Source: Parcubacteria group bacterium GW2011_GWA2_40_23
GTDB lineage: Bacteria; Patescibacteriota; Patescibacteriia; UBA11705; JABHMO01
Assembly (NCBI GenBank): GCA_000996245.1
Contig: LBYP01000005.1
Coordinates: 10,305 to 74,304 of the forward strand
Length of the DNA: 64,000 bases
Direction: 5' to 3'
In this document: one piece after another, positions 3,882-63,463 of the stretch
Numbering within the stretch: the first letter of the stretch is position 1
Layout: each line of letters opens with the position of its first letter
Position numbers and translations under genes: made by a program
The notes under the pieces: generated by a model
What the model saw: the letters and a program-made list of their open reading frames with translations, nothing else
Databases searched by the model: none
What the model was told of the DNA's origin: nothing

Positions 3882-6647
3882 CTAATAAATCTTTTCCATC
3901 TCCTGCCAATTCTTCCCTGCCTCAGTTTCAACTTTAATCGGCACTTCTAATTTATGAATTTTTTCCATTTTTTCATCAATAATTTTCGCTACCTGATCCA
4001 CCATATCCATCGGCACTTCAAAGACTAATTCATCGTGAACCTGAAGCATCATTTTTATTTTATTACTGGTGACTGGTGACTGGTTACTGGTGACTAGTTT
4101 ATTGAGTCCCTTAATTATCTTATAGACCTCGATCATCGCAATTTTCATTAAATCAGCTGCTGTACCTTGAATCGGCATGTTAATAGCCATACGTTCGGCG
4201 GACAAGCGCACTTGAGCAACACCGGAATTTATTTCTGGCAAATATCTGCGGCGACCAAATAATGTTTGGACATAACCATTGTCACGCGCTTCTTCTTTTA
4301 TTTTATCTAAATAAATTTTAACGTCTTTGTAAGTTTCAAAATATTTTTCGATAAATTCTCGTGCACGTTCTCGCGAAATCTTTTTGCGCCAAGCCAAACC
4401 ATAGGCACCCATACCATACAAAACTCCAAAGTTGACTTCCTTAGCCGCAGAACGCATTTCCTTATCGACTTTTTCGAGTGGGACTTCAAAAATTTTAGCC
4501 GCTGTTGTGGTATGAATATCTTCGCCACGTTTAAAAACATCCATCATGTTTTTATCTTTAGCGAGACAAGCGATGACGCGCAATTCAACTTGAGAATAGT
4601 CAGCCGAAACCATACGTTGACCACGATCAGCCACAAACGCTTTGCGAATTGCTTTGCCCCAATCTGTCCGAATTGGAATATTCTGCAAATTTGGATTGGA
4701 TGATGACAATCTTCCCGTCGCAGTAATGGTTTGATTGAACTCTGTATGCACTCGACCGGTTTTTGGATTGATCAATTTCGGTAAAGCATCGACATAAGTT
4801 GATTGTAATTTAGAAAGCTCACGATAATCTTCGATGAACGGCACAATTTCATGTTGATCATGCAATTTTTCAAGTTCGACAGCCGCGGTTGAAATGCCAG
4901 TCTTAGTTTTACCTATTCCCTCGCGACTAATATTCAACTTTTCAAATAAAATTTCTTTGAGTTGTAATGGCGAACTAATATTAAATTCTTCACCAGCTAA
5001 TTTATAAATCTTTTTAGTTAAGGCTTTTAATTGTTTGCTTAATTCTTTTGATAAAACACTGAGTTGTTCTTCGTCGATTTTGATTCCCGTGAGTTCCATC
5101 TCAACCAAAACTTCGACAAGCGGCATTTCGATTTCATCAAAAAGTTTTATCAGTTCATTTTCTTTCAATTCGTTTTGCAAAGGTTTTATCAACCGGAAAG
5201 TATAATCAGCATCTTCGCAAGAATAATCTGACACTTTGTTTTTGTCGACAAATGCGAGCGTGGTTTGTCCCTTGCCTTTGCCGATTAAATCAGTAATTTT
5301 AGTCATCTGATAGCCCAGCTCGCGGAAAACCATATCGTCGAGCTTGTGGGCTCGGGTACCAGGATTCAGCAGATATGAAGCGATCATGGTATCGAACCAA
5401 ATACCTTCGACTTCAAGCCCATTGCACTTCAACGCCTTGATATCAAACTTCATATTCTGTCCGGCTTTCTTGACGTTTGGATCGGCAAAGATTGGTTTTA
5501 ATTTTTCGAGGAATTCAGGCTTCGCTTCAACATAATAAGCCACGCCCTCTTCCCAGCAAAAACTAATACCCAGTAATTTTGCGAGAATAACATCGAGCCC
5601 GTCAGTTTCAGTATCAAAAACAAAAAACTCTTGTTGGTTTAATTTTTTCAAAAACTTTTCAAACTCAACTGCTGTTTGAATTAAAGTGTAATTGTGATTT
5701 GATTGTCTTTCGGTTCGTGCTTCAGTTTCAACTTCTGTTTTGCCACCAAGAACCGGCAAACGATTTAATAAACTTTTAAATTCAAGCTCCTGAAAGAGTT
5801 CATAAACATCTTCTTTGTTATAAGATTGCAAAGCGCATTTTTCTAAAGTGAAATCAATCGGCACATCGTGCACGATAGTTGAGAGAACGCGGCTTTGATA
5901 TGCCTGATCTTTATTATCAATAAGCAATTGATACAACCGCTCCGTGACTTTTATGTTTTTATAAACTCCAACTTTAACTTTTTTATACATTTCTTCCATG
6001 GTGCCAAATTCTTTGACTAGTCCGAGCGCTGTTTTTTCGCCCACACCAGGAACTCCCGGTATATTATCTGACGGGTCACCACGCAAACCTTTATAGTCGA
6101 TGAGTTGCTCGGGGCCAATTCCTTCATATTTTTCCTTAACTCCTTTGACATCATAAATAACCGTATCATTCATACCTTTGCGTAAAGTATAAACATGAGT
6201 ATTCTCGTCGACCAACTGAAACGCATCTTTATCTCCCGTCACAATAATAGAAAGAATCTCATCATTATCAACACTTTTTTCATGACACAAAGTTCCAATC
6301 ACATCATCAGCTTCAAAACCAGCTTTTTCAAAAATCGGTACATTCATGGCTTCTAAAACTTGTTTTAAAATTGGAATTTGATCGTACAATTCATCTGGTT
6401 GTTTAACACGTGTGGCTTTGTAGTCGACCGAAAGTTCATGACGGAAAGTTTTTTCTTTTCTATCAAAAGTCACAGCCAAATATTCTGGTTTAAATTCAGT
6501 TAAAGCTTTAAATAAAGTTGTTAGGAATCCGTAAACAGCATGAACCAAGCGGCCATCCTTAGTGGTCATTGGTGGCAGGGCGTGCCAGGCGCGATGGAGT
6601 AAGGCATTGCCGTCGACGATAACAAATTTTTTTCTTGATTTGACCAT
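3882..6647 (-). CDS. polA: DNA polymerase I
   Basis: 921 aa with an N-terminal 5'-3' exonuclease region, pol motif DYSQVELRV and QVHDELVFEV. AT-rich. Confidence 0.95.
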   Translation of the reverse strand: MVKSRKKFVIVDGNALLHRAWHALPPMTTKDGRLVHAVYGFLTTLFKALTEFKPEYLAVTFDRKEKTFRHELSVDYKATRVKQPDELYDQIPILKQVLEAMNVPIFEKAGFEADDVIGTLCHEKSVDNDEILSIIVTGDKDAFQLVDENTHVYTLRKGMNDTVIYDVKGVKEKYEGIGPEQLIDYKGLRGDPSDNIPGVPGVGEKTALGLVKEFGTMEEMYKKVKVGVYKNIKVTERLYQLLIDNKDQAYQSRVLSTIVHDVPIDFTLEKCALQSYNKEDVYELFQELEFKSLLNRLPVLGGKTEVETEARTERQSNHNYTLIQTAVEFEKFLKKLNQQEFFVFDTETDGLDVILAKLLGISFCWEEGVAYYVEAKPEFLEKLKPIFADPNVKKAGQNMKFDIKALKCNGLEVEGIWFDTMIASYLLNPGTRAHKLDDMVFRELGYQMTKITDLIGKGKGQTTLAFVDKNKVSDYSCEDADYTFRLIKPLQNELKENELIKLFDEIEMPLVEVLVEMELTGIKIDEEQLSVLSKELSKQLKALTKKIYKLAGEEFNISSPLQLKEILFEKLNISREGIGKTKTGISTAAVELEKLHDQHEIVPFIEDYRELSKLQSTYVDALPKLINPKTGRVHTEFNQTITATGRLSSSNPNLQNIPIRTDWGKAIRKAFVADRGQRMVSADYSQVELRVIACLAKDKNMMDVFKRGEDIHTTTAAKIFEVPLEKVDKEMRSAAKEVNFGVLYGMGAYGLAWRKKISRERAREFIEKYFETYKDVKIYLDKIKEEARDNGYVQTLFGRRRYLPEINSGVAQVRLSAERMAINMPIQGTAADLMKIAMIEVYKIIKGLNKLVTSNQSPVTSNKIKMMLQVHDELVFEVPMDMVDQVAKIIDEKMEKIHKLEVPIKVETEAGKNWQEMEKIY

Positions 6648-7968: not shown

Positions 7969-8107
7969 ATATACTACTAATTACGAATCAGCTACTAATC
8001 TACCAATACTAATTTTGCGATCATATTGAACAACTTCAACCTAGTACTATAAAGTGTTCCCTTTAAGTGCTAGGCAAGCAAGCGCAGCGATACAGCAACT
8101 AGAACAA

Positions 8108-9196
8108 TTAAACATTAAACCTAAACAAACACACATCCCCATCTTGCATCACATAATTCTTCCCTTCCAACCGTATCAACCCTTTTTCTTTGGCCGCAAC
8201 TTCGCTACCAACATTTAAAAGATCTTGCCAATTGATAGTCTCTGACGAGATAAATCCGCGTTCAAAGTCGCCATGAATTTTACCTGCCGCTTGTGGAGCC
8301 TTCATACCACGAGTAATTGTCCAAGCTCGAGTTTCATCTGGCCCAGTCGTTAAAAAACTAATGAGATTCAAAGTTTCATAGGCTTTGACGATGATGCGAT
8401 CGAGCCCAGACATTTTTAAACCCAAAGCTTCCATATATTCGGCTACTTCTTCTTTTGGTAAATCAGCCAAGTCAGCTTCTACTTTTGCGCAGACAGGAAT
8501 AATTACTTCACCAGGCAATTTTTCAAAAGTCGGATTATCATTAACTCGATTTTCATCAACATTCAAAAGATAGAGCATTGGTTTTAAAGTCAAAAAACTT
8601 AAATAAGTAATTTGCTGCTTCTCGTCATCAGTTAAATCTATTTTTCTAAGAGCCTTGCCATTTTCTAAAGCTGGAATAATTTTAGTTTCAAAAAGTTCTA
8701 CCAATTTTATTGTTTCTTTTTCGTCTGGCGAACCAGAAGTTTTTAATTTGCCTTTTAATTTTGATAAATGCGGTTTGGCCACTTCCAAATCTGCAAAAGC
8801 AAGTTCAATATCAATTGTTTCCGCATCTCCTTCAGGATCAACTTTATTATTGACGTGAATAATTTCTCCAGATCGGAAGTCGCGCAGCACATGACAAATC
8901 GCATCAACCTCGCGAATATTATGCAAAAATTTATTTCCCAAACCCTCGCCCTTATGTGCGCCTTTGACCAAGCCAGCAATATCGACAAACTCGATGGTGG
9001 TGTAAATGGTCTTGGCTGATTTTGACATGACCGCAAGTTTTTCCAAGCGCTCGTCAGGCACAGCAACAATACCCTTATTTGGTTCAATGGTACAAAAAGG
9101 GTAGTTGGCAATATCAATTTGTTTTTTGGTTAGTGCCTTAAATAAGGTTGATTTCCCCACATTTGGCAAGCCGACAATTCCGATTGAAAATGACAT
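8108..9196 (-). CDS. ychF: ribosome-binding ATPase YchF
   Basis: N-terminus [23 protein letters not shown]; GTPase/TGS-like architecture. Confidence 0.9.
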
Positions 9197-12200: not shown

Positions 12201-12340
12201 TTAACAGCAAGTCTCTAGCTATAATCAAAAAAGCAACCCAGTACTATAAAGTGTTCCCTTTAAGTGCTGGGCAAGTAAAACAAGAAAACAAAAAACTAAC
12301 GCCGACTATTTGCTTTGTTGCTTTCTTGTTTTCTTGATTA

Positions 12341-16199: not shown

Positions 16200-16370
16200 A
16201 TTGCTTCACTCTGGGGCTTGCCCAGTAGTGTGGCGAAGCCTCTACTACTGGGCCCCCATCGTCTAGTGGTTAGGACACCAGGTTTTCATCCTGGTAACAG
16301 GGGTCCGATTCCCCTTGGGGGTACCATAAAGTACACGCTATGCGTGACTTTATGGCAAGCCATAATACAA
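16200..16370 (+). repeat. tRNA cassette flanks: leader GGGGCTTGCCC + hairpin overlapping the tRNA 5' end, and trailer hairpin including CCA + GGCAAGCCAT
   Basis: Same leader/trailer family as the 53.7-56.2 kb tRNA cluster. Confidence 0.6.
16252..16326 (+). tRNA. tRNA-Glu (UUC)
   Basis: Cloverleaf folded by hand; anticodon loop TTTTCAT; CCA encoded. Confidence 0.8.
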
Positions 16371-41871: not shown

Positions 41872-41911
41872 GAAAAAAACACCCCCGCACCACAGATGAC
41901 TGGGTGCGGGG
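41872..41911 (-). terminator. rho-independent terminator
   Basis: ccccgcacc...ggtgcgggg with a T-run on the minus strand. Confidence 0.6.
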
Positions 41912-41952
41912 TAAACCCAACTCATTGTCGAACGAGCGGGGCGTTATGGCTA

Positions 41953-53579: not shown

Positions 53580-53637
53580 ATATGCAATTTTTTTATGAAT
53601 ACATTATATCATAAGTTCTATTTTATTATGGGGTATT

Positions 53638-53663
53638 AACAAAAAACAGCTAAAATTAGCTGT
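53638..53663 (-). terminator. rho-independent terminator ending the tRNA transcription unit
   Basis: acagcta...tagctgt with a T-run on the minus strand immediately after tRNA-Gly. Confidence 0.55.
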
Positions 53664-53670
53664 GCTTTGT

Positions 53671-53746
53671 TGGAGCGGGTAAGGGGAGTCGAACCCCTAT
53701 CTTCAGCTTGGAAAGCTGTAATAATACCGCTATACTATACCCGCCC
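53671..53746 (-). tRNA. tRNA-Gly (UCC)
   Basis: Hand-folded; anticodon loop TTTCCAA; CCA encoded. Confidence 0.8.
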
Positions 53747-53915
53747 TGTAGTACATGCTCCGCATGACTACAGGGCAAGCCCTTTATCAAGCGAAACTTT
53801 AGTACGTTTCATCGCATGACTACAGGGCAAGCCCTTTATCAAGCGAAGCTTTAGTACATTTTTCCGCGTGATTGCAGGACCAAGCCCAACGATCCGCGAA
53901 GCTGTAATTCAAGTC
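53747..53915 (-). repeat. three tandem copies of the tRNA leader element (GGGCTTGCCC + hairpin with GCGAAGC-type apex)
   Basis: Successive copies are progressively more degenerate. Confidence 0.6.
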
Positions 53916-53956
53916 CTGTTATTATACCAAGATTTATTGCTTTTTCAAGACCTGTT

Positions 53957-54967
53957 CTAATTTACTTCAATATCAATATGCTTAACCCCAGGGAATTTTT
54001 TATGCAGTTTTTGCTCAAGTTCATCAATTCTTCGGCCCATTAGGCGAGCCATCTGGTCACTATAGTCAACACAGAAGCGTAAGAACTCATCATAGTTGTT
54101 ATTGATTATCTCAAACTCTTCATGCAAATCTCCGTCTTTAATAATATCCTTCAATAAGGAATAGCCATTAAATTCAATTTCGCATTTGACGCGATAAATT
54201 CCATAATCTAAAACTATTGATTTAAAGTCGAGTACTTTTTCGATCCCAGGATCAGCTTCTAGCGTTTCAATAATTTCATTGCGCATATCTTCGGGCATGG
54301 CTTTGCCAATTAGAAATTCCCGATTCTTATTTATTAAGAAAAGAGCCATAATGCCCAGCATGACACCGATGACAATTGAACCGATTGCATCGAAAAAATA
54401 TAAGCCAGTAAAATGAGTCAAAAGAATACTCACAAACGCAACTATAGTGCCAAGGATCGCAAGCCCGTCTTCATATAAAACCGCCAAAGATGAGGGGTCG
54501 CCATCTCTTAAAATATGTTTTAAATGTTTTTGGGGATTGTGTTTTTTTAATTCATACCAAGCAATTCCGAAGGTTGAAAATTCTACAACGAAGGCAATGA
54601 GCAACACTAAGTAAGTCAGAAAGCCGGTGTGAATTGCACGCTCATGGACCAAAGCCATGATACCACTATATACGGTGACACCGGAACCAATAAAGAAAAC
54701 GCCGCAAGCTGAAATTAAAGCTCATAAAAATCGTTCTCGTCCGTACCCATAAATAAAAGATTCACTCGGTTTTTTGACCGAGCGTTTAATTCCAATAAAA
54801 AGTAAAATTTGATTTGAAGAATCGGCCAAGCTGTGAATCGCTTCAGAAAACATGGTTGCTGAGCCGGAGATGAAGGCACTAATGAATTTCAAAGTCATTA
54901 CTACGAGGTTGCCCAAAAGGGCAGCAACAACAGGCAGGTAGCCTACAGACTTTTGTGTATTTATCAT
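53957..54967 (-). pseudogene. cation diffusion facilitator (CDF) transporter gene interrupted by an in-frame TGA (about 54722)
   Basis: ORFs 54722..54967 and 53957..54658 are in the same frame: GYGRERFL[TGA]ALISACGVFFIG; the HSLAD motif is present. Confidence 0.55.
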
Positions 54968-54981
54968 TTTGTAAAATTTGT

Positions 54982-55058
54982 TGGTGGGTCCGCTGGGATT
55001 TGAACCCAGGACGCCCAGCTTAAAAGGCTGGCGCTCTAACCAACTGAGCTACGAACCC
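54982..55058 (-). tRNA. tRNA-Lys (UUU)
   Basis: Anticodon loop CTTTTAA; GGGTTCGTAGCTCAGTTGG. Confidence 0.85.
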
Positions 55059-55546
55059 TAAAGTACATGCTTCGCATGACTTTAGGGCAAGCCCTAGAAT
55101 CAAACGAAGTTGTTATTGGTTGTTCTTCCTAAAGTATGATCTTAACATTAATCTAATTGCTCTTTTACCGTCCGTTGTTTTGAAATAAGCCTCTCTTCTT
55201 AGGGCATCATCACGACTTAGATGTGCCTCGTAATAAATAACATTCCAAGGGCCTCGATTTTTTGTTGATGGGACAAGGCCTGCATTGTGCTTTAATGATC
55301 TGTGATAAACATCATCTGGAGTAAAGCCAGCATAAAGGTTTTTAGTTTTTTGACCTTCTAAAACATACGTATAATACATATGTTTTAAGAATAATACCAG
55401 CTATTGCAAAGAACAAATCTAGGGGGGGGTATCACTGGGCGGTTCACCCTGAAGTATAAATTTCATTTAACCTCATGGCTAGCCATGAAGTTACGTGATA
55501 ATCATGTCTGGTTTACCATAAAGTCATGTGATTAGCATGTACTTTA

Positions 55547-55623
55547 TGGTCGGGGTGGTGGGACTCGAACCCACGGCCTCTTGGTCCCAAACCAAGCACT
55601 CTAGCCAACTGAGCCACACCCCG
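55547..55623 (-). tRNA. tRNA-Pro (UGG)
   Basis: Anticodon loop TTTGGGA. Confidence 0.85.
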
Positions 55624-55724
55624 AAGTACAGGCTTCGCCTGACTTCGGGGTAAACCCCGCATCAAGCAAAGCTAGATTTTACAATGAATGGCTTGCCACA
55701 AACTGACACGGAGTGTCTAATTTG

Positions 55725-55800
55725 TGGTGCCGAGCCCCAGAATTGAACTGGGGACGCAAGGATTTTCAGTCCTTCGCTCTACCACTGAGCTAGCTCGGCC
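55725..55800 (-). tRNA. tRNA-Phe (GAA)
   Basis: Anticodon loop CTGAAAA. Confidence 0.85.
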
Positions 55801-55958
55801 CGGTAGTACATGCTTCGCATGACTACCGGGCAAGCCCTGTAATAAAGCGAAGTTTAGTACGTTTTTTCGCATGACTGCAGTGTAACCTCAGCAATCAAGC
55901 GAAGTAACAGTATTATGATGGATGGCTTGCCATGAAGTCACACGTAGTATGTACTTCA

Positions 55959-56036
55959 TGGTGGGCGCGGGGGGAATCGAACCTCCGACCTCAGCATTAT
56001 CAGTGCTGCGCTCTAACCAACTGAGCTACGCGCCCC
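55959..56036 (-). tRNA. tRNA-Ile (GAU)
   Basis: Anticodon loop CTGATAA. Confidence 0.85.
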
Positions 56037-56136
56037 GAAGTACAAGCTTCGCTTGACTTCGGGGCAAGCCCTTCAGCAAGGAAGCAGTTATCAATAAATG
56101 GCTTGCCATAAAGTCATGCGATTAGCATGTACTTTA

Positions 56137-56213
56137 TGGTGGGTGGCATAGGATTCGAACCTACGACCCCTTCGGTGTAAACGAAGTGCTCTAACCAGCT
56201 GAGCTAGCCACCC
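56137..56213 (-). tRNA. tRNA-Val (UAC)
   Basis: Anticodon loop TTTACAC. Confidence 0.85.
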
Positions 56214-56594
56214 AGAAGTACAGGCTTTGCCTGACTTCTGGGTAAACCCATAGTCAAACAAAGTTTTTGTACATGGTTCGTCTGACTTCTGGCTTGCCCT
56301 GTGGCGCAATGCCACGGGGGTAAACCCATAATCAAGCGTAGAGTAATAAACAAAACTTAGCTTAGCTAACTAAGCCATCGTGCGCTCAGTATAGCAGGAA
56401 TCTATAGCTATTTCAAGTTATTTTACTTTTAAATAACAGCAAAAGTATAGCAAAAAAAAAGAGACTAATCAATAGTCCTTTTTTTGTTAACTTCAGAATA
56501 GTGGTACGAATCATTTGTCTCCTGCATAGAGAATAAAATACAAGAGCAGGATCGACCTAAGACGATACAGATAAACTGTTCGTCATAGCCCCTT

Positions 56595-58066
56595 AGAAAG
56601 GAGTTGTTTCCATCCACAGCTTCCGCTACGGATGCCTTGTTACGACTTAGCCCCTATCATCGGTCCTACCTTCTGCCGTCCTACAACGACATTCGGGCAT
56701 TACCGACTCTCTTGACTTGACGGGCGGTGTGTACAAGACTCGAGAACGTATTCACCGTGACGTGCTGATCCACGGTTACTAGCGATTCCAGCTTCATGAG
56801 GTCGAGTTTCAGACCTCAATCCGAACTGAGACCAATTTTGGTGGGATTTGCTCCATCTTACGATTTGGCGTCCCTTTGTATTGGCCATTGTAGCATGTGT
56901 GTTGCCCAAGGTGTAAGAGCCATGCTGATTTGACGTCATCCCCACCTTCCTCCTTGTTATACAAGGCAGTTTTCTAATAAAGTATAAATTAGAATGAGGG
57001 TTGCGCTCGTTATCGGACTTAACCGTACACCTCACGGCACGAGCTGACGGCAACCATGCAGCACCTGTCTAGCACCCTCGTAGGCGGCCCTAGTTTCTTA
57101 GGGCTTGCAGCTAGATTTCAAACCTTGGTAAGGTTTTTCGCTTATCGTCGAATTAAACCACGTGCTCCACCGCTTGTGCGAGTCCCCGTCAATTCCTTTG
57201 AGTTTTAATCTTGCGATCGTACTCCCCAGGCGGGATATTTAACGCGTTAGCTTTTTGTGACGACACTGAGAGGGTCGATACTCCCAATGTCTAATATCCA
57301 TAGTTTACGGCGTGGACTACGCGGGTATCTAATCCGCTTCGCTCCCCACGCTTTCGTGCCTTAGTGTCAGTATTGTCCTAGTAAGCTGCCTTCGCATTTG
57401 GTGTTCCTGCCGATATTAACGGATTTAACCCCTACACCGGCAATTCCGCTTACCTCTTCCAAACTCAAGTCTAACAGTATCAGTGGCGATTCCCCGGTTG
57501 AGCCGAAGGATTTAACCACTGACTTAATAGACCACCTACGCACGCTTTACGCCCAATAAATCCGGGTAACGCTTGGGGCACTCGTATTACCGCTGCTGCT
57601 GGCACGAGTTTAGCAGCCCCTTATTCTTCTGGTACAGTCATTAGTTCTTCCCAGAAAAAAGATTTTTACACCCCGAAGGGTTTCATCAACCACGCGGCGT
57701 CGCTCCTTCACACTTTCGTGCATTGAGGAAAATTCTCGACTGCAGCCTCCCGTAGGAGTCTGGGCAGTGTCTCAGTCCCAGTGAGGCGGGTCGTGCTCTC
57801 ACACCCGCTACCCGTCGTAGCCTTGGTAAGCTTTTACCTTACCAACTAGCTGATAGGCCATAGGCCACTCTCTGACCGATAAATCTTTACTGCACCGACT
57901 CATGCCAGTGCAGACCATCGTGTATTAGCTCAGATTTCTCCGAGTTGTTCACGAGTCAGAGGTATGTTACCAATGTGTTACTCACCCGTTTGCCACTCCT
58001 ATTCTATCCGAAGAAGGAATAGGCGTTCGACTTGCATGCCTTAGACACTGGTGATAGCAAATCTAC
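56595..58066 (-). rRNA. 16S ribosomal RNA
   Basis: Reverse-complement contains GTGCCAGCAGCCGCGGTAATAC and AAGTCGTAACAAGG...CTCCTTTCT. 3' end carries anti-SD ACUCCUU; 5' region about 25 nt shorter than the E. coli layout; ends approximate. Confidence 0.85.
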
Positions 58067-58134
58067 CTTTAAAATCATTGAATTGACAAATGATTCCTTA
58101 CCACTATTCTGATGTCAACGATCATGTGGTTAAA

Positions 58135-62069: not shown

Positions 62070-62501
62070 AATTTAAGTTATAAGTTATAAGCGAGATAAG
62101 TTTTAAGCTTTTTTTAAATTACTTATAACTTGTCTCTCTAATTGATATTTTTAATGAAATATTTTTTATTGGTTTACCCTGAAGTTAAAAAGAGAATACT
62201 TTTTATACTGCAGGGTGACTTGATAATAACTTTTTTTATTCAATAAGTCAATGGTATTGGCGTTTTGACAAAGAATAGCGTTTGTGGGGAAGGGATTGCA
62301 TTTTTTGAGATTGTATGATAATATTTTGCTCACATTTGGCTATTTGAAGAGCTAGGTGGGAAGGCTATGTCAGTTATTGACAAAGTCTTAAAAATATGCT
62401 ATTATAGTAGGTCGTTTAATTAAAGCTGGACTAGGGTTATTAGGTGCTTTCTGAGCTTTTCATGAAGCCTAAATATACGCTAGTTTTAGCAAAAATTTAG
62501 T

Positions 62502-63047: not shown

Positions 63048-63149
63048 TTCAACAAATAAAAATGTCCCGTTTATACGGGATATTTTTTTTACAATCAATG
63101 GCTTGCCACGAAAAAGTAGGGAACAAAAATCTTTGTTCCCTACTTTTTT

Positions 63150-63224: not shown

Positions 63225-63463
63225 ATTAATATTTTCTGTCGCCCGATTACACTTGCCTGCCCCGCATTCGAACGTAGTGAGTAGTGCGGGGGCGACCAGG
63301 CCACGCGAGATTATAATAACATGTAAAATCCATCTTTGCAACGGACAAAAATTGTTCAAGAATATCCTCAGCATGGGATTTTTTGATTGACATTATCATC
63401 AATCTTGAATAACATTGATGAGGTGCTTGTGGTGCCTTTAACCTGCCTTTGAAGGAGGCATTC

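Follow-up and report, generated by a model that had tools for sequence, protein, structure and literature searches.

The tRNA genes in a 64,000-nucleotide (nt) stretch of Parcubacteria group bacterium GW2011_GWA2_40_23 (contig LBYP01000005.1, positions 10,305 to 74,304 of the forward strand; hereafter the window) are bordered by short hairpins. In this work, we show that most of these leader and trailer hairpins are copies, in opposite orientation, of a single 36-nt unit, which is present or absent at equivalent sites of AMMECR1 genes and at orthologous tRNAs of related bacteria. The unit is most likely an unusually small palindromic mobile DNA specialised in the termini of stable-RNA genes of Patescibacteria. 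To the more specific reading, that the tRNA flanks are copies of a very small mobile palindromic DNA element like the repetitive extragenic palindromic (REP) sequences of proteobacteria, we give about an even chance.

ARAGORN identified eight tRNAs in the window, at the positions given in an earlier description of this DNA (the original prediction), which had placed every one of them in a conserved cassette of leader and trailer hairpins. Leaders are indeed found at seven of the eight (Glu, Gly, Lys, Pro, Phe, Ile and Val) and trailers at five (Glu, Pro, Phe, Ile and Val), but "every" was too strong: tRNA-Cys has no leader hairpin, its upstream region being a different remnant, and is followed only by a terminator-like hairpin, an ordinary terminator closes tRNA-Gly and no trailer follows tRNA-Lys. 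The core AGTCATGCGAAGCATGTACT occurs six times in the window with at most three mismatches, against none expected, and GGCTTGCC occurs 13 times against 1.4 expected. A strict structural scan of the window returned 11 copies, all at a tRNA end, and a covariance model gave 13 strong matches, namely seven leaders, five trailers and one solo copy. The window hairpins fold at -16 to -22 kcal/mol as RNA (z-scores -3.8 to -5.7) and at -8 to -14 kcal/mol as DNA (z -3.6 to -5.9). Rfam gave no family match for the flanks, neither at the gathering threshold nor at E <= 10.

Anatomy and covariation of the 36-nt unit

On its top strand, the element has a fixed length and the layout a(GGG)-YNNR-a'(CCC)-b(3 nt)-AGT-CANGC-GAA-GCNTG-T-ACT-b'-a(GGG). 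The 36-nt unit comprises the linker Y-N-N-R, a' (CCC or CCA), b, the core, b' and a (GGG or TGG), with the hairpin proper taking up 32 nt, and it lies directly 3' of a host triplet that equals its own last triplet and is the complement of a'. The core AGT-CANGC-GAA-GCNTG-T-ACT is invariant and contains one bulged T. The top strand is sense in leaders, where the last GGG overlaps tRNA nt 1-3 and the leader end falls at an offset of -3 to +3 from tRNA nt 1. Trailers are the same element on the opposite strand, the top strand being antisense, and their transcript reads N73-CCA-b-AGT-A-CANGC-loop-GCNTG-ACT-b'-UGG-CAAG-CCA, with the hairpin always starting at C74. In the transcripts the bulge is a U on the 3' arm of leaders and an A on the 5' arm of trailers. 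As originally predicted, the CCA end pairs inside the trailer hairpin, in every case with the TGG of TGGCAAGCCA. A second CCA follows each trailer and a second GGG (CGGGG in tRNA-Pro) precedes each leader. The overlap of the leader hairpin with the tRNA start is likewise real, but it spans 1 to 5 nt in the window rather than the 2-5 nt first given, and the outer arm described at that time as variable (X) consists in every case of exactly 3 nt and the CCC that belongs to the 10-mer a-YNNR-a'.

The leaders of many genomes also carry a specific motif, aGCTTcGyTTGAt, 3-5 nt upstream of the 10-mer (in the window, for example, at 53786-53800, 55098-55112 and 55661-55676). The TTGAT first noticed upstream is present at most leaders, but as part of this longer motif, whose reverse complement contains GCGAAGC and resembles half of the core. 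No covariation was found between the motif and the variable base pair of the hairpin, and long-range pairing between the two is unsupported. At 41883-41921 (-) of the window, the 10-mer GGGTTTACCCC stands directly before an ordinary GC-rich terminator hairpin with a T-run, so the a-YNNR-a' module is not confined to the AGT-type core.

A scan for the core pattern in one genome per species yielded 36 stretches, a number within the chance range, about 18 of which also have complementary flanks and are real. The real matches come from metagenome-assembled genomes (MAGs) labelled Patescibacteria group, Falkowbacteria, Saccharibacteria, Peribacteria, Kaiserbacteria and Andersenbacteria, with a few labelled Bacteroidota or Gammaproteobacteria. 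A metagenome scan gave 47 loci, and no copy was found in the IMG/VR viral contigs, cultured phages and plasmids scanned. Duplicate removal left 37 leaders (at most 3 nt from the tRNA start, same strand), 22 trailers (starting at the CCA, opposite strand) and 46 other copies, about a dozen of the latter being chance matches of the first pattern; the loci (L-numbers) were gathered with a sequence pattern and were chosen for holding the element, so that these context counts are biased and the occupied fractions are too high. Among the 89 distinct tRNAs in the loci, 37 have a 5' element and 32 a 3' element with the layout CCA-b-..-b'-TGG-YNNR-CC. Other hairpin cores are present in 12 of these 32, and even there the CCA pairs with UGG. 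The invariant core is kept across many Patescibacteria lineages.

Covariation was assessed on an alignment of 78 distinct 42-nt copies, in which 98.6% of the stem positions of the main hairpin are paired and 10 of its 14 pairs show double changes, bearing out the local hairpins with changing but complementary stems of the original prediction. The central pair occurs as all four Watson-Crick types (UA 31, AU 18, CG 17, GC 10), and sliding the partner by 1-3 columns as a control lowers pairing to 27-48%. Although the selection script demanded at least four of five inner pairs and at least two of three outer pairs, the search pattern fixed only the invariant positions and left b1-b3 and the middle of the inner stem free, so that these four free pairs are a fair test of covariation. 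The 10-mer covaries as well, a with a' (GC 45, UA 18) and Y with R (CG 45, UA 26, the reverse polarity never). A three-way covariation of upstream a, a' and downstream a links alignment columns 4-6 with 11-13 and 11-13 with 40-42 through double changes; in L013, two tRNA-Val copies have GGG/CCC/GGG and CGG/CCG/CGG. Leader-type and trailer-type copies within one genome belong to different sub-families.

The flanks are near reverse complements of each other, and the original prediction had suggested that leader and trailer pair around the tRNA; the product might then be a long stem for processing by RNase III, as known from rRNA operons. In the Glu and Phe precursors, GGCUUGCC/GGCAAGCC in fact closes the minimum-energy fold. 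Nevertheless, in 13 tRNAs with both flanks, the b and inner-stem positions pair locally in 205 of 208 cases against 150 of 208 between leader and trailer, and no tRNA has a full leader-trailer match. Complementarity of the two 10-mers holds for four of five window tRNAs, which accounts for the Glu and Phe folds, but for none of nine tRNAs from other genomes (4 of 14 tRNAs with both elements altogether), and many tRNAs have one flank only. The stem enclosing the tRNA is a by-product unsupported by covariation, apparent because both flanks are copies of one element, and we consider a processing stem of this kind very improbable.

Probable movement, turnover and placement of the element

Evidence of movement comes from AMMECR1, in which five loci hold the element in frame (..LRG-LPRSQAKLVLRG-CIGT). 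Among the 120 closest AMMECR1 homologues (63-74% identity), 71 have no insert, 30 have a 12-residue insert of the element type and 19 have other inserts at the same spot. The empty protein site reads ..NGELRGCIGTY (187 amino acids), and the corresponding DNA in L095 is CTTCGG/GGTTGTATCGG, the slash marking the site. Filled sites read AGGGG-CCTG-CCCC-GT-AGT-CAAGC-GAA-GCTTG-T-ACT-AC-GGGG-TTG in L054, L067 and others and, in a second intact variant (L089), AGGGG-CCTG-CCCC-GT-AGT-GAACC-GAA-GGTTC-T-ACT-AC-GGGG-TTGTATCGG, where the inner stem GAACC/GGTTC is fully compensated. The AMMECR1 copies of L090-L093 are in progressive decay. In all these sites the 36-nt unit follows a host GGGG and itself ends in GGGG. 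Because filled and empty sites differ by this unit, what moves is a single 36-nt hairpin, and its length explains why inserts in coding sequence stay in frame.

Other inserts, resembling translated palindromes (e.g., TKYQIQNTKYE, NPARNATHSVAGGGE and RSTRKTDAKQEHETDAKE), are found at the LRG/CIG site of homologues P0015, P0039, P0049, P0070, P0077, P0088, P0092, P0102 and others; several insertion elements seem to share this site as a hot spot.

The element also occurs antisense in the gene of a 591-amino-acid protein and in a putative integrase/transposase open reading frame (ORF; motif read by eye), at the T-loop start of tRNA-like sequences (L052 and L034), inside the 23S rRNA and at its 3' end in L053, and between 23S and 5S in L039. 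The latter locus, from an Andersenbacteria MAG, contains in addition a group I intron (Rfam RF00028) in its 23S rRNA (5733-6043). In L052 (1-230), a complete tRNA-Leu lies within a larger tRNA-like gene (GCGGGCA...TGCCCGCA) whose outer T-loop holds the 36-nt element; neither ARAGORN nor Rfam recognised this outer gene.

Palindromes may also grow in place, without moving and without any need for selection, when replication switches template beside tRNA genes and corrects or extends a quasi-palindrome. Such an origin would fit the almost purely Watson-Crick pairing, the inclusion of neighbouring host bases (CCA, GGG) in the stem and the tandem and degenerate copies beside intact ones. It does not fit the same 20-nt core with its uncorrected bulged T at unrelated sites in distant lineages, nor the presence or absence of a discrete 36-nt unit in AMMECR1, and we regard it as improbable.

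Turnover is also seen at tRNA ends. The close relative L058 has a 94% identical 16S rRNA, the gene order of the window (16S-Val-Ile-Phe-Pro-Lys-CDF-Gly, CDF being a cation diffusion facilitator gene) and an identical tRNA-Ile. In the window this cluster has the element at all six leaders and at four trailers, whereas in L058 the element is confined to the leaders of Val and Gly. There, the leaders of Ile, Phe, Pro and Lys are plain (four of the six orthologous 5' ends), and the trailers are hairpins of another kind that share the layout. In the more distant but syntenic L007, the element is absent at the Val and Phe leaders, where the promoter abuts the tRNA. Leaders and trailers have been gained or lost independently at these orthologous tRNAs and, since relatives with the same genes lack it, the element is dispensable for the tRNAs and turns over quickly.

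The original prediction had also raised a tRNA-carrying miniature inverted-repeat element. This was a good lead, although the moving unit proved to be the hairpin without a tRNA. If leader, tRNA and trailer formed one composite mobile cassette, inverted copies with the same end facing inward would be expected around the tRNA, as observed. Against this, relatives keep the gene order but differ in single flanks, the element moves without any tRNA, and no tRNA with both flanks was seen at non-syntenic places in close strains. We give such a cassette hardly any chance.

Tandem arrays are found in two loci. In L058 (11215-11365), four to five copies of a 31-nt unit (TGGCGAGCCATCCATAGCGCAAGCGACGGAT) follow tRNA-Phe, and L029 (5600-5715) has tandem 59-nt units holding an AGT-type hairpin; in both arrays the units share their terminal triplet.

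Several features suggest that selection acts on a DNA structure, not on an RNA. The linker Y-NN-R agrees with the rule for DNA hairpin loops of two residues. Of the 826 stem pairs in the 59 copies that flank tRNAs, 817 are Watson-Crick and only four are G·T, a share far below that usual for structured RNAs. The bulged T was kept in every family member when the scan did not demand it (two unrelated-looking hairpins lack it); it has not been "corrected" away, and therefore something reads the asymmetry. The apex of leader-type copies is GCGAAGC or GCGNAGC in about 90% of cases, and GCGAAGC forms an extraordinarily stable DNA mini-hairpin, its RNA counterpart being considerably less stable (PMC13037366).

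Could the hairpins instead be RNA signals, selected by the host to mark or protect the ends of stable-RNA precursors? They would then act as sites for double-strand-specific RNases, or as exonuclease blocks, keeping the 5' G's and the CCA in a stem until the action of RNase P and 3' trimming, and copies elsewhere would be side products. The extremely exact placement at tRNA ends, the element abutting the 23S 3' end and sitting in the 23S-5S spacer, and the CCA-UGG pairing that stays constant with a different hairpin core all speak for such a role. So do the core conserved over many Patescibacteria lineages, the double changes that preserve pairing at orthologous tRNAs, the leader-specific upstream motif, the GNA loop of the leaders and the stability of the hairpins as RNA. 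On the other hand, identical tRNAs of a close relative do without the leader element, which makes it dispensable and also weakens RNase III/E-type processing, and in the window three of eight tRNAs lack the trailer and one of eight the leader. The 5' end of the tRNA lies at a variable distance from the hairpin (-3 to +3), which therefore cannot measure the cut. G·U pairs are nearly absent, and the bulge switches arm and base between leader and trailer, so that the two are not one object for a single RNA-binding protein. Moreover, in minimum-energy folds the acceptor stem has to compete with the leader hairpin in Val and Pro, and copies lie in frame in proteins, where they decay. A host-selected RNA signal is possible, then, though unlikely on this evidence; it would be compatible with a domesticated mobile element, and a secondary use of the hairpins by the host may exist beside mobility.

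For a mobile DNA palindrome, we propose the following mechanism. Insertion 3' of a host triplet a would give host-a, then YNNR a' b core b' a, then the rest of the host sequence, and the downstream sequence would keep the same three bases, with the terminal a of the element replacing the host triplet. At a tRNA 5' GGG (in sense) or 3' TGG (antisense of CCA), the tRNA ends would be rebuilt and the old triplet would become part of the flank. Only precursor sequence that is cut away would be altered, and the ends of tRNA and rRNA genes would be safe landing sites in dense genomes. As to the recognition mechanism and the enzyme, we infer that a nuclease or transposase recognises the element as a single-stranded DNA hairpin and that a' base-pairs with the target from its place at the hairpin's 5' foot, in the manner of the guides of IS200/IS605 and REP/RAYT. 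The transcribed hairpins would be removed by RNase P and normal 3' trimming. Under this mechanism, the second CCA after trailers and the second GGG or CGGGG before leaders would arise because insertion regenerates the target, and the same end of the element would always face the tRNA. Tandem arrays with a shared triplet (L058 and L029) would result from repeated insertion beside the regenerated target, and leader and trailer sub-families would differ within a genome because a' would set the target.

A bolder version holds that these are the smallest known guide-directed DNA transposons, 36 nt long, with one hairpin serving as both ends and a target set by 3-4 bp plus the shape of the acceptor end, living on stable-RNA termini across Patescibacteria. 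Alternatively or additionally, the host would have adopted them as a lineage-wide code for the maturation of stable-RNA ends, read by a hairpin-specific nuclease, the first candidates being the small GIY-YIG proteins of tRNA clusters. We offer this proposal tentatively and consider it rather doubtful.

Some of our observations weigh against mobility. The precision is too high for a target of 3-4 nt alone, since C74 is the start of all 22 trailers, the ends of the 37 leaders all fall between -3 and +3 of tRNA nt 1 and other (G/T)GG sites in the spacers go unused. Either recognition also involves the structure of the acceptor end, or selection retains only copies that abut the tRNA. The context counts themselves are biased by the pattern-based collection. 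No HUH/Y1 transposase motif was found in the 644 kb of window and loci, which are genome fragments only. The window copies all differ from one another, nearly always by compensatory changes, which suggests a hairpin maintained by selection over a long time rather than a recent burst. Leaders keep the GNA loop and carry the aGCTTcGyTTGAt motif, which the coding-sequence inserts lack, and this hints at a leader-specific function. Finally, several hairpin cores share the CCA-b-..-b'-TGG-YNNR-CCA layout within one genome, and a genome of about 1 Mb hardly has room for one cognate enzyme per core.

Copies and neighbouring genes in the window

The window encodes a TrmD protein identical to one encoded on JGI contig Ga0209211_10000806. 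Besides the tRNAs, Rfam found only a 16S rRNA (56597-58090, -), with 90% identity to the 16S of a "Patescibacteria group bacterium" MAG. No 23S gene follows it in the 56 kb downstream within the window, and the rRNA genes are thus apparently unlinked; a terminator-like hairpin and a fresh promoter separate the 16S from the tRNA cluster. The tRNAs Gly, Lys, Pro, Phe, Ile, Val and Cys lie between 53671 and 63224 on the minus strand, and tRNA-Glu lies at 16252-16326 (+).

Sigma-70-like promoter sites were recognised at 56388..56416 (-; TTGAAA-17-TATACT), ahead of the Val-Ile-Phe-Pro cluster, and at 53921..53948 (-; TTGAAA-16-TATAAT), ahead of the tRNA-Gly leader region. Because of their position upstream of the cluster and of tRNA-Gly, the conserved flanks are probably internal parts (spacers) of transcripts, not promoters. 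That the flanks are promoters, with TTGAT as the -35 box, and terminators of single tRNA genes would agree with the TTGAT-like motif upstream of most leaders and with the terminator-like Cys and Gly trailers. Yet no -10 box was found at the right distance, while good promoters precede the cluster and tRNA-Gly; a U-tract is missing from the family hairpins, and TTGAT is part of a motif whose complement resembles half of the core. The chance that this explanation holds is negligible.

In the order of transcription, the tRNA-Val leader, GGGTTTACCC-AGA-AGTCAGGCAAAGCCTGTACT-TCT-GGG, lies at 56211..56252 (-; 58.4 bits and strict scan), its last GGG being tRNA nt 1-3. Degenerate copies lie upstream of it at 56253..56335 (-; seen in the sequence, with weak model matches at 56287-56319 and 56297-56330), a region that holds GGGTTTACCC, an unrelated GC hairpin, GCAAGCC and a decayed core AGAAGTCAGACGAACCATGTAC. 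The tRNA-Val trailer at 56096..56139 (+, transcript -; 53.8 bits; RNA fold -17.3 kcal/mol, z -5.65) is transcribed as CCA-TAA-AGTA-CATGC-TAATC-GCATG-ACT-TTA-TGG-CAAG-CCA. For tRNA-Ile, the leader is at 56033..56074 (-; 67.6 bits; RNA fold -21.8 kcal/mol) and the trailer at 55920..55961 (+, transcript -; 55.2 bits). The tRNA-Phe leader at 55799..55840 (-; 63.9 bits) has a degenerate copy upstream, recognised by its sequence (55841..55900, -; ..CTGCAGTCATGCGAAAAAACGTACTAAACTTCGC..), and the diverged trailer of this tRNA (55686..55727, +; ATT-A-GACAC-TCC-GTGTC-AGT; 37.6 bits and fold) keeps the same layout through compensatory changes.

The tRNA-Pro leader (55619..55660, -; 64.0 bits and sequence) takes tRNA nt 1-5 (CGGGG) into its hairpin, and a second CGGGG stands before the upstream 10-mer; the trailer (55506..55549, +; 44.1 bits) ends in TGGTAAACCA. 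The solo copy at 55447..55488 (-; 34.5 bits and sequence), TGGCTAGCCA-TGA-GGT-TAAAT-GAA-ATTTA-T-ACT-TCA-GGG, has no contact with a tRNA and lies 68 nt upstream of a GIY-YIG gene. Further along are the leaders of tRNA-Lys at 55056..55097 (-; 65.5 bits; RNA fold -18.2 kcal/mol) and tRNA-Gly at 53744..53785 (-; 62.8 bits). Upstream of the latter, two degenerate tandem copies with a 52-nt period were read from the sequence (53786..53890, -; GGCTTGCC at 53826-53833), each with GGGCTTG(C/G)CC, a decayed core and a GCTTCGCTTGAT motif, and a terminator-like hairpin follows tRNA-Gly at 53646-53663 (-). In the distant tRNA-Glu, the leader at 16211..16252 (+; 52.6 bits) has an inner stem GTGGC/GCCTC with one mismatch, and the trailer at 16324..16365 (-, transcript +; 58.9 bits; fold -17.6 kcal/mol) has CACGC/GCGTG.

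Behind tRNA-Cys, at 63096..63149 (-; sequence and fold, 7.3 bits only), a terminator-like hairpin with a T-run is followed by GTGGCAAGCCAT, a 10-mer that is the sole feature in common with the element family. Before this gene, at 63225-63300 (-), a 12-nt copy of the tRNA-Cys 5' end (GGCCTGGTCGCC) precedes a hairpin with the trailer-type layout (CCCC-GCA-..-TGC-GGGG-CAGG), then 35 nt and the intact tRNA-Cys, an arrangement that resembles a scar left by insertion into a copy of tRNA-Cys. A 5' tRNA fragment, an insertion and a full tRNA follow one another in the same way in L066 (Glu), L076 (Tyr) and L055 (Ala), and the insertion of L066 carries a GIY-YIG gene.

Further copies lie apart from tRNAs. 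A solo copy of the TAAAG type, TGGTTTACCC-TGA-AGT-TAAAAAG..CTTTTTA-T-ACT-GCA-GGG, occupies the intergenic region upstream of rpsP (62167..62215, +; 27.1 bits). The tRNA-less copies that had been reported after ychF and pilB are real relatives, although they belong to a diverged subfamily with the inner stem TAAAG/CTTTA, also present in L063, L050 and L071, and score weakly with the model. The first, CCTAGTACTATAAAGTGTTCCCTTTAAGTGCTAGGCAAG, lies downstream of the putative ychF (8040..8085, +; from the sequence), with an inner stem and loop equal to L063 3989-4017, and the second downstream of the putative pilB (12238..12281, +; sequence, 9.9 bits). A further GGCTTGCC, at 9165, is a chance match inside a GTPase gene.

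As originally described, tRNA-Lys has no trailer and a disrupted CDF-transporter gene follows it. This cation-efflux gene (PF01545; 53957-54967, -) starts 14 nt after the tRNA and is split by a single in-frame TGA (54722-54724), where the intact gene of L058 has TGG (Trp). From the sequence, the TGA is either a nonsense mutation, making the gene a pseudogene, or a sequencing error; UGA recoding is ruled out by the TGG of L058 and by other long ORFs, which have no in-frame TGA. The tRNA-Lys of L080 has two tandem trailer elements behind it, then tRNA-Gly, and the cation-efflux gene is absent from this interval.

A small stand-alone GIY-YIG nuclease gene (PF01541; 55113-55379, -) lies inside the tRNA cluster, between Pro and Lys. 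Homologues are found at most 160 nt from tRNAs in eight loci (including L007, L069, L062, L031, L066 and L023), at varying positions and sometimes within a split tRNA, and clustering of the ORFs within 2.5 kb of hairpins returned GIY-YIG as the sole notable recurrent family. No constant pair of hairpins flanking the GIY-YIG genes was found. The gene could be mobile, of the homing type, or it could be a partner to the hairpins.

Relation to known elements and significance

Full-text literature searches by topic and by the exact core sequence returned no description of the element, only unrelated oligonucleotides; subscription journals were largely outside their scope, and a prior description is possible. 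Among known systems, the REP, BIME (bacterial interspersed mosaic element) and REPIN sequences of proteobacteria, with their RAYT transposases, are alike in being short imperfect palindromes of 20-40 nt with a conserved asymmetry, many copies, both orientations and inverted pairs or tandem clusters. The present element is a short repeated palindrome too, with a 32-nt hairpin in a 36-nt unit, 13 strong copies in 64 kb and 78 across the loci. The cleavage sites of REPs are read jointly with a conserved sequence at the hairpin's 5' foot, and many copies here start with GTAG (b = NGT, plus AGT). The invariant GT[A/G]G foot of REPs is lacking, however, as column 16 (b3), where GTAG needs a T (and a G in column 15), is T in about 20 of 78 copies and A in about 51 (GAAGT, AAAGT). 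The element further differs in sitting at exact tRNA and rRNA gene ends, not in general 3' untranslated regions, in its nested second palindrome a-YNNR-a' and in its occurrence in Patescibacteria, where the RAYT (Y1 HUH) motif was not found in the 644 kb of window and locus fragments.

Elements of the IS200/IS605 family (IS608, ISDra2) and palindrome-associated transposable elements (PATEs) resemble it in their single-stranded DNA hairpins with an extrahelical T and in inserting 3' of a short target without classical duplication. IS200/IS605 elements choose their target by pairing with a guide at the 5' hairpin foot, and seamless excision would be a further common trait; such a mechanism predicts the a/a'/a covariation seen here. 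Insertion 3' of a target paired with the guide, without duplication, agrees with this covariation and with the AMMECR1 sites, pairing being the putative means of recognition. In contrast, IS200/IS605 elements are at least 100 nt long with two different subterminal hairpins as ends, whereas here the single 32-nt hairpin would be both and the target measures 3-4 nt. TnpA (PF01797) was not found in the window and locus fragments (644 kb).

The Rickettsia palindromic elements (RPEs) also insert in frame into protein genes, as does the element in AMMECR1, in the 591-amino-acid protein and in the putative integrase/transposase ORF, but they are 100-150 nt long (RPE-1 to RPE-8), restricted to Rickettsia and not tied to tRNA ends. 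With no invariant GTAG, one hairpin instead of two ends and 36 nt instead of 100-150, the element fails the defining features of REP, IS200/IS605 and RPE and is a member of none of them.

More distant likenesses exist. Small GC-rich hairpin and double-hairpin elements are reported to have spread in the compact mitochondrial genomes of fungi, Volvox, sponges and placozoans into spacers, rRNA and coding regions, often by tRNAs (PMC2670323, PMC7813641); they are organellar, unrelated in sequence and without a fixed relation to the first or last tRNA bases. In the leader-trailer helices of rRNA operons, which are RNase III substrates, complementary sequences lie on either side of a stable RNA in one transcript (PMC11404451), while the conserved pairing here is within each flank, not between flanks. 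The d(GCGAAGC) mini-hairpin is known from the phage G4 origin, ssiA and N4 promoters (PMC13037366), which are single functional sites in replication or phage transcription and not a dispersed repeat.

Other candidates were rejected. TIGR arrays, which provide Tas guide RNAs in Candidate Phyla Radiation (CPR) bacteria and in phages, have 36-nt units with stem-loops (PMC12045711), yet they are tandem, with box C/D and two non-complementary spacers, and adjoin a Nop-domain gene, whereas the copies here are dispersed and inverted, with complementary arms and no box C/D; no systematic search for Tas genes was made. Integron attC sites are excluded by the absent GTTRRRY core and the inverted copies around tRNAs, intI not having been looked for systematically. 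Intrinsic terminators do not fit, as family hairpins are followed by TGGCAAGCCA or the tRNA, and T-runs occur only at the Gly and Cys trailers and at 41883-41921. Domain 5 of group II introns is alike in its 9-bp lower helix, 3'-strand bulge and 5-bp upper helix, but is ruled out by the 3-nt non-GNRA loop, the 1-nt bulge, the misplaced AGC triad and the length of 36 nt.

The 5' G's and the CCA end lie in stems in nearly every precursor, which raises the question of how RNase P and 3' maturation cope. The interest of the element would rise if a guide-directed mechanism or a processing role were demonstrated. If the mobile reading is true, it would explain the odd 12-residue inserts in conserved CPR proteins, and it would carry a warning for annotation, as tRNA flanks, rRNA insertions and in-frame peptide inserts of CPR genomes may share one source. 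It would also provide a simple natural example of target choice guided by base pairing, and an extreme case of selfish palindromic repeats, in which a unit of only 36 nt survives in highly streamlined genomes by rebuilding the gene that it interrupts.

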